Source of the DNA: Candidatus Zixiibacteriota bacterium
Lineage (GTDB): Bacteria; Zixibacteria; MSB-5A5; UBA10806; 4484-95
NCBI GenBank assembly: GCA_037441845.1
Contig: JBBIRK010000006.1
Location: forward strand, 148,880 to 212,879
Direction: 5' to 3'
DNA: 64,000 bases
Shown: one piece after another, positions 60,067 to 64,000 of the stretch
How positions within the stretch are numbered: position 1 is the stretch's first letter
Layout of the letters: each line of letters opens with the position of its first letter
The notes under the pieces: model-generated
What the model was told of the DNA's origin: nothing
Seen by the model: only the letters and a program-made list of their open reading frames with translations
Databases searched by the model: none
Translations under genes and position numbers: made by a program

Positions 60067-61443
60067 ATGAAAATCGCTATCGGCGCGGATCATGCCGGTT
60101 TCGCCTTAAAAGAAGAACTCAAGAAACAACTAAGCGGAAAAGGTTTTACGATCGACGATTGCGGAACCTACTCCTCCGATCCGGTCGATTATCCGATCTA
60201 TGCCCACGCCGTCGCCGTTCGCGTGGGACGGAACCAATGCGACCGAGGGATCATCATCGACGGTGCCGGAATCGGCTCATGTATCGTGGCCAATAAAATC
60301 AACGGCGTGAGAGCCGCCTCCTGCCACGACTTGTCATCGGCAAGAAACAGCCGCGAACACAACGACACCAACGTCCTCACCCTCGGCGCCGGATTAATCG
60401 GCCTCGAGCTTGCCCGCCAAATAACCGATCTCTGGCTGTCGACCGAATGCACCGCGGAAAGACATAAAAAACGGGTGGCCATGATCACCGAAATCGAAAA
60501 AGGCAACCCCCCGGCTGTGATCGCTCAGGCGGCATCGCCTGCCATACCCGAGCTCGGTCAGGAAGATATCCGGAAAATAGCCGAGAAAATCCAATCGCTC
60601 ATAGGCGGTAGTTGTCGGGTCGTCGATAATGACATCGTCTGTTCTTCCGGACAGAACATTTTCATTCATTACGGCCACCCTACCAAGATCGATCCCGATT
60701 CGGTCAAGCATATGATAGACGCCGGCGCCGGAAGAATCGGCTATACTCCCGATGGCAACGATGTGCCGTCCGGAATCACCGAGCTGATCGACCACACGCT
60801 GCTCAGCCCTCAGGCGACACCCGACCAGATCAAAAAGCTCTGCGAAGAGGCCGTCGCTTACAAGTTCGCCACCGTTTGCGTGAATCCCTGTCATGTCAAG
60901 TTATGCTCACAGTTGCTGCGCGGCACTCCGGTCAAGGTATGCTCGGTGGTGGGCTTTCCGTTCGGGGCGAACACCTCCGAGATCAAGGCGATGGAGGCGC
61001 GCCGGGCGATTCGCGACGGCGCCCGTGAGATCGACATGGTGATCAATATCGGAGCCCTCAAAGCCGGCGATGACGAAACCGTGCTGAAAGATATCATGGC
61101 CGTCACCGAGGCCTGTCGTGACGGCGGCGCGTTGTCGAAAGTTATTATCGAAACCGCCATGCTCACCGATGACGAAAAAATACGCGCCTGCAAACTCGCC
61201 AAAAAAGCCCGCGCCGATTTCGTAAAAACCTCCACCGGCTACGGCCCGGGAGGCGCCACCGTGCACGACGTGGCCCTGATGAGCGAGGCCGTCAAAGGAA
61301 CCAAGATGGGTGTCAAAGCCTCAGGAGGAATAAGAAGTTTCGCGGATGCCAAAAAAATGATCCTGGCCGGTGCCACCAGAATCGGCGCCTCGGCAGGGGT
61401 CAAAATCACCCAGGAGGCCAGGGAGATCACCGTCTCCGAATAG
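60067..61443 (+). CDS. rpiB-deoC: Fusion of ribose-5-phosphate isomerase B (RpiB/LacAB family) and deoxyribose-phosphate aldolase (DeoC).
   Basis: The N-terminal roughly 150 aa read [22 protein letters not shown]...[17 protein letters not shown] (RpiB). The C-terminal roughly 220 aa read [15 protein letters not shown]...ATVCVNP...[12 protein letters not shown]...VKTSTGYG...GVKASGGIR (class-I aldolase, Lys in VKTST). The start was set at the ATG at 60067. Confidence 0.8.
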
Positions 61444-61477
61444 AAACGCATCAAATTACCCAAGCCAGGAGAACACT

Positions 61478-62101
61478 TTGCCCGATTTAAGAGCTTACGT
61501 CTTTCTCGATAGCATCCAGCCCCAATATGCCGCATTTCTCGGAACCGTGGCTCAGGGGTTTTTGCCGATAGCCGGCATGGCCTCGCTTTACGTGGAGATT
61601 TCCCCGGGGATTGAAATCAACCGCATCACCGACATCGCCTTGAAATCCACCAAGGTCACCCCCGGTATGCAAATCGTCGAAAGGCTCTATGGTTTGCTGG
61701 AAATCCACTCGGAGTCCCAGGCCGATGTCCGCCAGGCGGGCAAGGCGATTCTCGATGCTTTGGGATTGCGCGAGGAAGACCGCTGGAAACCGAGAACGCT
61801 GTCAAGCCAGGTGATCAGACGTTTGGATGATCATCAGACGCAGCTGATCAATCGCATGCGCCACGGAAACATGATAATCGCCGGACAAACCCTTTACGTC
61901 ATGGAGGTGGAACCCGCGGCTTATGCCGCATTGGCCGCCAATGAGGCTGAAAAAGCCGCCGAAATCAATATTCTCGAAGTAAGAGCTTTCGGTTCGTTCG
62001 GCAGAATCTACTTGGGCGGTGAAGAAAAAGATATCGATGTGGGACATCGGGCGGCGATCAAGGCTATCGAGGGCATCTCCGGGCGGACCATGACGAAATG
62101 A
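61478..62101 (+). CDS. BMC-T shell protein (two divergent BMC domains in tandem). Probable TTG start with an AGGAG RBS.
   Basis: The two halves ([30 protein letters not shown]...[23 protein letters not shown] and [22 protein letters not shown]...[28 protein letters not shown]) follow the BMC-domain pattern of the adjacent BMC-H. Confidence 0.5.
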
Positions 62102-62194
62102 AATCGGCTGAATCCGAAATGGTTCGCCGGGAAAACGCAAGGTCAATTTCGAATGCAATGGCAAGTTACTTTTATCCTTATGGAGGTTGATTAA

Positions 62195-62512
62195 ATGGCA
62201 GACGCACTGGGCATGATAGAATGCCGTAGTTTCGCGGCCATGGTCGAGGCCGCCGACGCCATGGTCAAGGCGGCCAAGGTCGAATTGGTCAGTTACGAAA
62301 AAACGGGCGGCGGCTATGTCACCGCCGTGATCAGAGGCGATGTAGCGGCCGTCAAAGCGGCCTGCGAGGCAGGTCATGCCGGAGCTTCGAAAGTCGGCGA
62401 GGTTGTGGCTATGCATATAATCGCCCGCCCGCACTCCAACGTCGATGCGGTCATTCCGCTCGGGCGCGGTCCCGTATACGAGGAGCAAGCCGCCAAACAA
62501 ACCAAAAAATGA
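62195..62512 (+). CDS. BMC-H hexameric shell protein (PduA/EutM family).
   Basis: MADALGMIECRSFAAMVEAADAMVKAAKVELVSYEKTGGGYVTAVIRGDVAAVKAACEAG is the canonical BMC domain. Confidence 0.85.
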   Translation: MADALGMIECRSFAAMVEAADAMVKAAKVELVSYEKTGGGYVTAVIRGDVAAVKAACEAGHAGASKVGEVVAMHIIARPHSNVDAVIPLGRGPVYEEQAAKQTKK

Positions 62513-62647
62513 CCGCCCGGTTCGGGCCGATGGCGCGGCGTAAACCGCAATTGTCTTGATCGTGAGCTTTCGGGTTCAATACCGCCTGCGGCCGCCTGGC
62601 CGCCCGGCCGAACCCGATCGACCGAACCGGTCGCAGGAGAGGATAAC

Positions 62648-62965
62648 ATGCTTCTGGCAAAAGTGATTGGAACCGTCGTTTCCACTCGAAAAGAAAAAAG
62701 CCTCGAAGGCGTCAAATTCCTGTTGCTGCGACCGGTTGACCTCGACGGCAAAGAAAGCGGTGCCGGTGTCGTGGCTATCGATGCCGTCGGCGCCGGAATC
62801 GGCGAAATCGTGATGTTCGCCACCGGTTCATCGGCCCGCCAGACCGTCATAACCGACAAACGCCCCTGCGATGCGGTGGTGATGGCGATTGTGGATAGCT
62901 GGGAAATCGAAGGTGCCACCAAATATAAAAAAACCCAAAAAGAACCGAACGTGGATGAAATTTAG
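62648..62965 (+). CDS. BMC-P pentameric vertex protein (EutN/PduN/CcmL family).
   Basis: MLLAKVIGTVVSTRKEKSLEGVKFLLLRPVD...AIDAVGAGIGEIVMFATGSSAR. Confidence 0.8.
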   Translation: MLLAKVIGTVVSTRKEKSLEGVKFLLLRPVDLDGKESGAGVVAIDAVGAGIGEIVMFATGSSARQTVITDKRPCDAVVMAIVDSWEIEGATKYKKTQKEPNVDEI

Positions 62966-62999
62966 GCCGCTCCGATCGTAATCAGGCGGAAAAATCATC

Positions 63000-64000
63000 A
63001 TGGCCGAACTGGATGAAAGACAAATCGAGGCGATAGCCCGCAGGATCGTAGAGCATCTTTCGCTTGCCCGTAAAATGGAATCGCCCGGGCCGATCGTCCC
63101 CGATTTGGGTGACGGGATATTCGCCGATATCGATTCGGCAGTTCAGGCCGTAACCGCCGCCCAGCGCCAATTTTGCAATATGCCCCTGGCCAAACGCGAT
63201 GAAATAATCTCCGCCATTCGCAAATCGATGCTGGAAAACGCCGAAATCCTGGCAGAGGCCGCTCACGCCGAAACCGGCCTGGGACGCGTCGAAGATAAAA
63301 TCCGCAAGAACAAACTGGTAACCGAAAAAACGCCGGGCACCGAAGATCTCTATCCGACCGCCCGCACCGGCGACCGTGGTTTGTCCCTTTTCGAAGCGGC
63401 TCCTTTTGGAGTCATCGCCGCAATCACGCCTATCACCAACCCGACCTCGACAATAATCTGCAACACTATCGGAATGATCGCCGCCGGCAACGGGGTCGTT
63501 TTCAATGTTCATCCGGGTGCGCGCAAGGTGTCCATTCAAAACGTTATTTTGCTGAACAAGGCGATAACCGGAGTCGGCGGCCCGCCCAATCTGGTGGCGG
63601 CGATCGCCGAACCTACCGTCGAAAGCGCTCAACGACTGATGCAACATCCCGGGATAAGGCTGATCGTGGTCACCGGCGGCGAGGCGGTCGTGCATTTCGC
63701 CATGCACAGCGGCAAAAGGGCGATCTGCGCCGGTCCCGGCAACCCGCCTGTGGTCGTCGATGAAACCGCCGATATCCCCAAAGCCGGAAAAGATATCGTT
63801 CAAGGCGCTTCGTTCGATAACAATATAATCTGCACCGATGAAAAAACGACTTTCGCAGTCGAATCGATCGCCGTCGACCTGCTCCACGCAATGTCCGACA
63901 ACGGCGCCTTGGTCTTGAATACCTCTCAGGCCGCCCAGCTCGAACGATTGATTTTCGAAAAAAACAACGGCCCCGGGAAACCGGCGGTCATGAATAAATC
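63000..64000 (+). CDS. CoA-acylating aldehyde dehydrogenase (EutE/PduP family) with an N-terminal amphipathic encapsulation-peptide-like helix. Partial: the 3' end lies beyond the window.
   Basis: Manual translation from the ATG at 63000: MAELDERQIEAIARRIVEHL...FGVIAAITPITNPTSTIICNTIGMIAAGNGVVFNVHP...GASFDNNIICTDEKT (catalytic Cys). It is not in the ORF track because there is no in-window stop. Confidence 0.75.
   Translation, partial: MAELDERQIEAIARRIVEHLSLARKMESPGPIVPDLGDGIFADIDSAVQAVTAAQRQFCNMPLAKRDEIISAIRKSMLENAEILAEAAHAETGLGRVEDKIRKNKLVTEKTPGTEDLYPTARTGDRGLSLFEAAPFGVIAAITPITNPTSTIICNTIGMIAAGNGVVFNVHPGARKVSIQNVILLNKAITGVGGPPNLVAAIAEPTVESAQRLMQHPGIRLIVVTGGEAVVHFAMHSGKRAICAGPGNPPVVVDETADIPKAGKDIVQGASFDNNIICTDEKTTFAVESIAVDLLHAMSDNGALVLNTSQAAQLERLIFEKNNGPGKPAVMNK

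Follow-up and report, generated by a model that had tools for sequence, protein, structure and literature searches.

A probable SPU3-type bacterial microcompartment operon headed by an RpiB-DeoC fusion gene in Candidatus Zixiibacteriota

The 3' end of a 64,000-nucleotide stretch of contig JBBIRK010000006.1 from a Candidatus Zixiibacteriota bacterium (the whole stretch is referred to here as the window) carries five collinear + strand genes of a bacterial microcompartment (BMC), which start at position 60067 and extend up to its 3' boundary. We interpret this cluster, at a probability of roughly 0.85, as the 5' part of an eight-gene operon for a metabolosome of the SPU3 subtype of the sugar-phosphate-utilisation (SPU) compartments (Axen 2014, PMC4207490; Sutter 2021, PMC8217296; Dwyer, Sutter and Kerfeld 2024, PMC11585597). 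Its first gene encodes a chimera of an RpiB-like ribose-5-phosphate isomerase (RPI) domain and a DeoC-type deoxyribose-phosphate aldolase (DERA). All five genes had been listed by a first-pass annotation of this DNA, and we find each of them in place:

60067-61443, + strand: RpiB-like/DERA (RpiB-DeoC) chimera gene, 458 amino acids plus stop codon
61478-62101, + strand: CcmP-like BMC-T(dp) shell protein with tandem BMC domains, 207 amino acids, TTG start codon
62195-62512, + strand: BMC-H, hexamer shell protein, 105 amino acids (PF00936, E 2.2e-28)
62648-62965, + strand: BMC-P, pentamer (vertex) protein, 105 amino acids (PF03319, E 1.1e-29)
63000-64000, + strand, running off the window: CoA-acylating aldehyde dehydrogenase (AldDH) of the PduP/EutE type, first 333 of about 477 amino acids

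The presence of PF00936 and PF03319 genes within 1.5 kb on one strand marks the region as a BMC locus, and the AldDH, a member of the PduP/EutE clade with a catalytic Cys and an N-terminal extension resembling an encapsulation peptide (EP), marks it as a metabolosome; the C-terminal third of this enzyme lies beyond the window. Membership in the SPU class is indicated by a DeoC-family DERA with its D/K/K catalytic residues and an extra N-terminal extension, together with an RpiB-type protein that has Asp in place of Cys66 and retains His99. Within this class, three features of the window point to SPU3: RPI and DERA form one polypeptide, the RPI N-terminus is devoid of an EP, and the BMC-T(dp) protein is CcmP-like. 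An RPI-DERA chimera has been reported in 20 SPU3 loci, its RPI part lacking the usual N-terminal EP and its "linker" being assigned to an N-terminal extension of the DERA with a probable encapsulation helix (PMC11585597). CcmP-like BMC-T(dp) proteins were placed in SPU2 and SPU3 loci and are documented in loci of the Haliangium ochraceum (HO) type as well (PMC8217296). The first-pass annotation had proposed an SPU-type locus with an RpiB-DeoC fusion, an acetaldehyde-forming DERA and an acylating AldDH, and those of its features that can be examined match published SPU3 loci. It had also called the SPU class rare, which it is not, and had implied that the fusion and its internal helix are new, while both were described by Dwyer, Sutter and Kerfeld (2024, PMC11585597). 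An isomerase domain that looks inactive is likewise part of the published record, and the present locus adds another instance of SPU3.

The part of the cassette that lies beyond the window can be read from relatives. A 250-kb contig (ENA ERZ505355; locus L001) is collinear with window positions 50100-63997 at 83-84% nucleotide identity, a stretch that takes in the upstream genes for an ABC transporter, an S9 peptidase, a hexapeptide transferase, hypA and hypB; the five BMC-locus orthologues are 90-99% identical in protein. The first 333 residues of the window's AldDH are about 90% identical to the 477-residue L001 orthologue, behind which L001 encodes a BMC-T(s) protein of 212 residues and two BMC-P proteins of 90 and 89 residues. 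Past the cassette, unrelated genes follow (a 127-residue unknown protein, MsrAB and DUF134). The first-pass annotation had allowed for a different signature enzyme downstream; L001 contains none. In L001 and in 13 other fused loci the AldDH gene is followed by BMC-T(s), BMC-P, BMC-P; if the window continued likewise, its single BMC-P gene would become part of the BMC-P triplet that, with a BMC-T(s), characterises SPU3.

The full gene order, RPI-DERA, BMC-T(dp), BMC-H, BMC-P, AldDH, BMC-T(s), BMC-P, BMC-P, is complete in 14 fused loci including L001, counted over species-representative genomes in which RPI and DERA form one open frame. Such one-frame loci are L001, L009-L013, L016-L019, L022, L086 and L087, and the named lineages that carry fused loci are Neomarinimicrobiota, Krumholzibacteriota, Lentisphaerae, Opitutales, Thermoanaerobaculia/Acidobacteriota, Phycisphaerales, Calditrichia and one Gammaproteobacteria metagenome-assembled genome (MAG). 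In the Phycisphaerales locus (L086) the full order is followed by a class II aldolase gene, and the Calditrichia locus (L087) likewise has the full order. A 74%-identical relative (L085, positions 14951-20795) lacks the two trailing BMC-P genes; its BMC-T(s) gene is followed by a gene for a solute-binding protein and, after that, by an Rnf complex operon in the opposite orientation. A tblastn map of two fused loci, L019 and L022, displays three separate AldDH-like matches between BMC-P and BMC-T(s), which could be extra paralogues or one fragmented match. From these comparisons, the DNA beyond the window probably encodes the rest of the AldDH, a BMC-T(s) protein and two more BMC-P proteins.

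A PduL-type phosphotransacylase (PTAC), which had been expected downstream, is probably not among the missing genes. PTAC genes are present in almost all SPU1, SPU4 and SPU7 loci, and SPU3 is not among the subtypes listed (PMC11585597). Neither PTAC (PF06130) nor PduS was found in the four loci that we annotated (L001, L085, L086 and L087), and the L001 locus is also devoid of an alcohol dehydrogenase gene. A Pfam search of the 60 kb upstream of the locus within the window gave no PTAC.

The shell proteins have close homologues in two other types of compartment. The best PDB matches of the BMC-H protein are HO-5815 of H. ochraceum (5DJB, 146 bits, E 3e-42) and a tandem-fusion BMC-H construct (6NER), so that the HO shell provides its closest solved counterpart. 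The BMC-T(dp) protein, which is 98.6% identical to its L001 orthologue, is close to the H. ochraceum BMC-T proteins 5V76 and 5V74 (255 and 240 bits, respectively). HO and SPU loci share the BMC-P triplet and similar BMC-T(dp) proteins (PMC8217296), and the HO inventory of BMC-H, BMC-T(s), BMC-T(dp) and three BMC-P proteins is that of the cassette described here. One might therefore view the locus as encoding a compartment of the HO type, whose function is unknown. We consider this very unlikely since the DERA fused to RPI is encoded by the first gene of the operon itself; the main HO locus, in contrast, contains neither DERA nor RPI, and the pfam01791 enzyme, where HO genomes have one, is encoded at a different genomic location (PMC8217296). 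The published description of SPU3, on the other hand, fits the cassette.

The second likeness is to the beta-carboxysome. The tandem BMC domains of the BMC-T(dp) protein align end to end (residues 3-204, 287 bits) with the CcmP structures 4HT5 and 5LSR, and with CsoS1D at 193 bits; its E68-R69 pair aligns with the pore residues E69-R70 of CcmP. CcmP forms stacked trimers that are thought to pass sugar phosphates. With 347 bits, the BMC-T(dp) protein exceeds the cutoff of 340 set for NF053796, the CcmP model of NCBIfam, and CcmL is the best model for the BMC-P protein, at a score below the CcmL cutoff. An anabolic, carboxysome-like compartment nevertheless has a next to negligible chance of being the correct interpretation, and we reject it: RuBisCO, CcmM/N and carbonic anhydrase are absent from the window and from the L001 locus, the acylating AldDH and the DERA provide a catabolic context, and the occurrence of CcmP-like BMC-T(dp) proteins in SPU2, SPU3 and HO loci leaves the CcmP-model match as a sign of shell-protein homology only. 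That a shell protein of an apparently catabolic SPU compartment passes the equivalog cutoff for "beta-carboxysome protein CcmP" calls for caution in annotation, as automatic pipelines would probably label it a carboxysome protein. Outside the locus, the remaining 60 kb of the window gave no satellite shell genes or shell paralogues in a tblastn search.

Returning to the SPU3-type operon and its first gene, the chimera matches Pfam LacAB_rpiB (PF02502) over residues 3-140 (E 1.6e-51) and DeoC (PF01791) over residues 241-449, and reaches 276 bits (cutoff 117) on TIGR00126, the deoC equivalog of NCBIfam. It has been asked whether such a gene might be an artefact, two neighbouring genes having been joined through an assembly error or a frameshift. 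A possible hint in this direction is that L027, L030-L034, L039 and L052, mostly Actinomycetota and Chloroflexota MAGs, have the same eight-gene order, although their RPI and DERA were not scored as a single open frame. This split state is probably natural, with RPI and DERA encoded by separate adjacent genes; if so, a fusion or a fission event happened within an otherwise fixed cassette that is spread over many phyla. In the window, the frame from 60067 to 61440 contains no stop codon and no frameshift, including the region 60500-60700 that the first-pass annotation had singled out for inspection. A protein search, in which each match stands for a 90%-identity cluster of sequences from NCBI, JGI, ENA and Logan assemblies, recovered both domains in all of the best 120 homologue clusters, nearly all of which span the full query length. 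These include a 458-residue protein on an NCBI contig (P0001) that is 100% identical to the chimera and further homologues at 91%, 89% and 82% identity, and residues of the interdomain region are conserved as well. The uninterrupted frame and the many clusters with both domains, from independent assemblies, therefore refute the artefact, and we give it virtually no weight. Only one close relative (82-91% protein identity) is present in the databases searched; the nearest named relatives are Zixibacteria MAGs, with 70% protein identity for the fusion and 62% for HemB, which makes a placement of the lineage from these matches tentative.

We modelled the chimera with AlphaFold2 from a 60-sequence alignment and obtained a mean predicted local distance difference test score (pLDDT) of 83. 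In combination with alignments to solved RpiB and DERA proteins, the following organization emerges:

Residues 1-145 (nucleotides 60067-60501, + strand): RpiB-fold domain with an altered catalytic pair, as seen in alignments to solved RpiBs; residues 1-144 are modelled as an RpiB fold at a pLDDT above 90
Residues 146-164 (nucleotides 60502-60558): poorly conserved tether of low confidence, pLDDT about 50 and below 50 at residues 154-159
Residues 165-179 (nucleotides 60559-60603): predicted helix, pLDDT about 70-75
Residues 180-235 (nucleotides 60604-60771): rest of the DERA N-terminal extension, with C181-x9-C191-x8-H200-x2-H203 and then a conserved G220-x2-R223; modelled as three short strands (residues 182-186, 189-194 and 197-200) and a helix (residues 210-218), all at a pLDDT of 41-67
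Residues 236-458 (nucleotides 60772-61440, + strand): DERA TIM barrel with intact catalytic residues D323, K387 (the Schiff-base lysine) and K417; residues 236-451 are modelled at a pLDDT of mostly 86-98

The DERA half retains a complete set of catalytic residues. Its best PDB match is 8QPS (E 2.9e-75), and in BLASTP alignments D323, K387 and K417 coincide with D102, K167 and K201 of E. coli DERA and are invariant in 60 fusions. The E. coli reference sequence used in this comparison is identical to PDB entries 1KTN and 1JCL through the catalytic region and differs from them by one extra residue near the C-terminus.

Solved DERAs align with the chimera only from about residue 233 onward, which leaves the interdomain stretch of roughly 90 residues (146-235) as an extra element. 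The first-pass annotation had noticed in this stretch an amphipathic helix-like segment that might serve as an internal EP, and our analysis bears out its amphipathic character: residues 166-181, in and around the predicted helix 165-179, have a hydrophobic moment of 0.71, compared with a mean of 0.28 (standard deviation 0.15) for the protein. The pattern L163, D167, [LI]168, [KR]170, I171, [AV]172, [RK]174, I175, L178 recurs across the 60 fusions, and the hydrophobic positions L163, I168, I171, A172, I175, L178 and I179 are kept among these proteins from many phyla, while the alignment columns of the tether (residues 146-164) are variable and rich in gaps. Stand-alone DERAs (encoded at L070 and L041) begin with an equivalent helix, which is followed by a Cys-containing segment and then by the G-x2-R element. 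This shared organization argues that, as judged from sequence, the "linker" is the N-terminal extension of SPU-type DERAs and not a spacer made by the fusion. It is plausible to view helix 165-179 as a candidate internal encapsulation peptide.

The hydrophobic spacing of this helix is largely the same as that of a helix at the N-terminus of the AldDH. On the NCBIfam model NF011927 the AldDH scores 419 bits, and its catalytic Cys278 (nucleotides 63831-63833), within the motif FDNNIIC, is aligned with that of the PduP-type structures 4C3S and 5DRU. The alignment to these structures (283 bits for 4C3S) starts at residue 39, so that residues 1-38 form an N-terminal extension. It contains the helix ELDERQIEAIARRIVEHLSL (nucleotides 63006-63065), whose hydrophobic moment of 0.78 confirms the amphipathic character for which this N-terminus had been proposed to be checked. 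N-terminal EPs are present on the AldDHs of all SPU subtypes except SPU6 (PMC11585597).

The RpiB-like half is different in that its fold is preserved and its catalytic pair is not. In ungapped alignments to the RpiB proteins of E. coli (1NN4, 2VVR), C. thermocellum (3HE8) and T. maritima (1O1X), D65 occupies the position of E. coli Cys66 and A67 that of Thr68, while the substrate-binding residues D8, H9, H98 (aligned with His99), N99, R132 and R136 are retained. Among the 60 fusions, 56 have Asp and the remaining four Asn at position 65; position 67 is Ala in every one of them. An M. tuberculosis-type Glu75 base probably does not substitute for Cys66 either, its position being presumably the invariant Ser71 of the fusions. 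The chimera starts directly with the first RpiB strand (MKIAIGADH), and thus no EP precedes it. With Cys66 and Thr68 lost, ribose 5-phosphate (R5P) isomerase activity of this half is therefore not to be assumed. The Cys66-to-Asp exchange is found in all SPU RPIs, and the R5P isomerase activity of the SPU6 RPI is negligible (PMC11585597). Hence, of the earlier statement that an isomerase and an aldolase are fused here, the aldolase stands on its catalytic residues and the isomerase does not. Going by these residues, the RpiB-like half is most likely a scaffold or oligomerising partner rather than an R5P isomerase.

One could argue instead that the RpiB-like domain still works as an isomerase, with Asp65 as its base, on some sugar phosphate distinct from R5P; the compartment would in that case process another or a further substrate, and the fusion would channel the isomerase product into the aldolase. 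The invariance of D8, H9, H98, N99, R132 and R136 fits this proposal, as does the retention of Asp65 in so many of the fusions, which shows that the position does not drift freely. Moreover, the M. tuberculosis RpiB uses a Glu base, and RPIs can be broad in specificity (PMC11585597). Against this stand the replacement of both Cys66 and Thr68, the four fusions with Asn65, a residue that cannot serve as a base, and the negligible activity of the SPU6 RPI with the same exchange; furthermore, no pathway leads from R5P or ribulose 5-phosphate to DERA without transketolase (PMC11585597). We consider a working isomerase unlikely, and retain the scaffold or oligomerising partner as the more likely role of this half. 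An additional difficulty for isomerisation is posed by the substrate of DERA. 2-Deoxyribose 5-phosphate (dR5P) has no 2-hydroxyl group, and an aldose-to-ketose isomerisation of this compound is impossible.

From these features the following mode of operation can be proposed. By homology to solved shells, BMC-H hexamers would tile the facets, BMC-P pentamers would cap the vertices, and stacked trimers of BMC-T(dp) would provide a large gated pore. The cargo would consist of two enzymes, the AldDH targeted by its N-terminal helix and the chimera by its interdomain helix. dR5P would enter the shell, and the DERA half would cleave it into glyceraldehyde 3-phosphate and acetaldehyde, a substrate suggested by the enzyme family and by the published assay of the SPU6 DERA. 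The AldDH, whose catalytic Cys is present, would then convert acetaldehyde, CoA and NAD+ into acetyl-CoA and NADH. The RpiB-like half could act as an assembly partner or scaffold that aids coalescence of the cargo, since an oligomeric RpiB fold joined to an oligomeric DERA would yield a bivalent protein capable of networking it. Because the cassette contains no phosphotransacylase, alcohol dehydrogenase or PduS, acetyl-CoA and the cofactors CoA, NAD+ and NADH would have to cross the shell, plausibly via the BMC-T(dp) pore; an exit of acetyl-CoA through BMC-T(dp) has been proposed for SPU compartments in which PTAC is absent (PMC11585597). The dR5P is probably derived from scavenged DNA, in line with the published view of SPU compartments as a means for anaerobes to gain carbon and reducing power from DNA detritus. 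The locus would thereby represent a further instance of a compact, widely transferred eight-gene cassette, here in a deep-branching uncultivated lineage, and its very small set of two cargo enzymes makes it an attractive minimal system for engineering.

Several points weigh against this interpretation. PduS homologues are listed in the literature as frequent in all SPU subtypes except SPU6, and none was found in the four loci examined. The last three genes of the cassette are taken from L001, a relative at about 84% nucleotide identity, and the locus was examined through its sequence and a predicted structure. As for the supply of dR5P, nucleoside, deoxyribose and phosphopentomutase genes are absent from the window; a Pfam search for deoA/B/D-type, PduL and PduS genes among its approximately 45 open reading frames (ORFs) gave none. 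Beyond the helix, the extension is modelled with little confidence (pLDDT 41-67).

Comparison with characterised systems is consistent with a metabolosome of the SPU3 type. With published SPU3 loci it shares the chimera (N-terminal RPI, C-terminal DERA), the intra-protein helix contributed by the DERA extension, the Cys66-to-Asp exchange, the CcmP-like BMC-T(dp) protein and the N-terminal EP of the AldDH; in L001, BMC-T(s), the BMC-P triplet and the lack of PTAC agree with SPU3 as well. It differs from them in its uncultivated host, which possesses a dissimilatory sulfate-reduction gene island and shares only 62-70% protein identity with its nearest named relatives, Zixibacteria, in the lack of a PduS homologue or a class II aldolase beside the cassette in the closest relative, and in the Cys/His pattern of the DERA extension.

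The SPU6 compartments of Chloroflexi have the same helix-plus-strands N-terminal DERA extension, the D/K/K residues and an RPI with Asp for Cys66; their DERA is active and forms a complex with the RPI (PMC11585597), a pairing that the fusion described here makes covalent. In SPU6, however, DERA and RPI are encoded by separate genes, the RPI has an N-terminal EP of its own, the EP of the AldDH is C-terminal, and the shell proteins belong to other clades. The propanediol (PDU) and ethanolamine (EUT) utilisation compartments follow the same logic, in which a signature enzyme produces an aldehyde that an EP-tagged acylating AldDH consumes inside the shell. The signature enzyme in the present case, however, is an aldolase that acts on a sugar phosphate, and the cassette encodes neither a PduL-type PTAC nor an alcohol dehydrogenase, so that cofactors are not recycled internally.

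The Cys/His segment that follows the interdomain helix (nucleotides 60604-60680, residues 180-205) is the only lead in these data beyond the published picture, and its motifs go unmentioned in the main text of Dwyer, Sutter and Kerfeld (2024, PMC11585597). The C-x9-C-x8-H-x2-H pattern of the window's clade is found in 25 of 121 fusion representatives; the commoner C-x4-C-x2-C-x2-C occurs in 49, and 14 have no Cys in this segment. A Pfam scan of the window's interdomain region at E values up to 10 identified no family, and a related Cys-rich interdomain sequence gave only a sub-threshold match to Fer4_15 (E 0.029; 15.5 bits, cutoff 22.4), which we do not count as evidence. The segment may be a small metal- or redox-binding element. 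By analogy with carboxysomal CcmM/CsoS2, one can go further and imagine a clade-variable metal- or redox-responsive module that, in combination with the disabled oligomeric RpiB-like domain, would form a regulated scaffold nucleating the cargo core of a two-enzyme organelle; we regard this as a speculative and rather improbable extension. If it were true, a redox switch in an apparently sulfate-reducing host could tie assembly of the organelle to the redox state.

Two sequence elements are located in front of the fusion gene:

59895-59915: terminator-like hairpin after the upstream hypB gene
59983-60012, + strand: sigma-70-type promoter-like site, TTGACA-18 nucleotides-TATAAT, 12 of 12 consensus matches

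The promoter-like site lies 55 nucleotides 5' of the start codon of the fusion gene, and both of its hexamers are kept in L001, in surroundings that have diverged. With an apparent promoter of their own, as deduced from its sequence, and a terminator-like hairpin behind hypB, the BMC genes look like a separate operon. Scans of the whole window with Rfam (gathering thresholds) and for tRNAs yielded no matches, and hence no riboswitch or other RNA element 5' of the operon. The spacer between the BMC-H and BMC-P genes (62513-62647) is unusually long, at 135 nucleotides, and rich in G+C. We considered it as a structured attenuator and rejected this idea: it does not fold better than shuffled sequences (z -1.3; z -0.6 in L001), and its sequence is not kept in L085, a more distant relative.

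Further upstream, Pfam matches delineate a large dissimilatory sulfate-reduction gene island (window positions 8041-46822), composed of three parts:

Minus strand, haem part: hemL, hemB, cobA-hemD, hemC, a siroheme-synthase-like NAD_binding_7 gene and hemA
Minus strand, dsr/qmo part: DsrP/O/K/M (dsrMK(J)OP), DsrC, DsrN, DsrB, DsrA, QmoB and QmoA
+ strand: Sat, an AprA-like flavoprotein and a Na:sulfate symporter

Judging by this gene content, the host probably reduces sulfate or sulfite, or else oxidises sulfur through a reverse Dsr pathway. Separate from the main dsr cluster, a 225-residue protein with two DsrC-like stretches (37715-38389, - strand) is encoded next to a second pair of DsrK-like (Fer4_8 plus CCG) and DsrM-like (Nitrate_red_gam) proteins (38975-41526, - strand). 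Near the 5' end of the window, a 579-residue ORF (2089-3825, - strand) joins 4Fe-4S dicluster and CCG (heterodisulfide-reductase-like) domains to a C-terminal response-regulator receiver, an unusual combination, and is adjoined by a gene for a PAS histidine kinase (640-2058).

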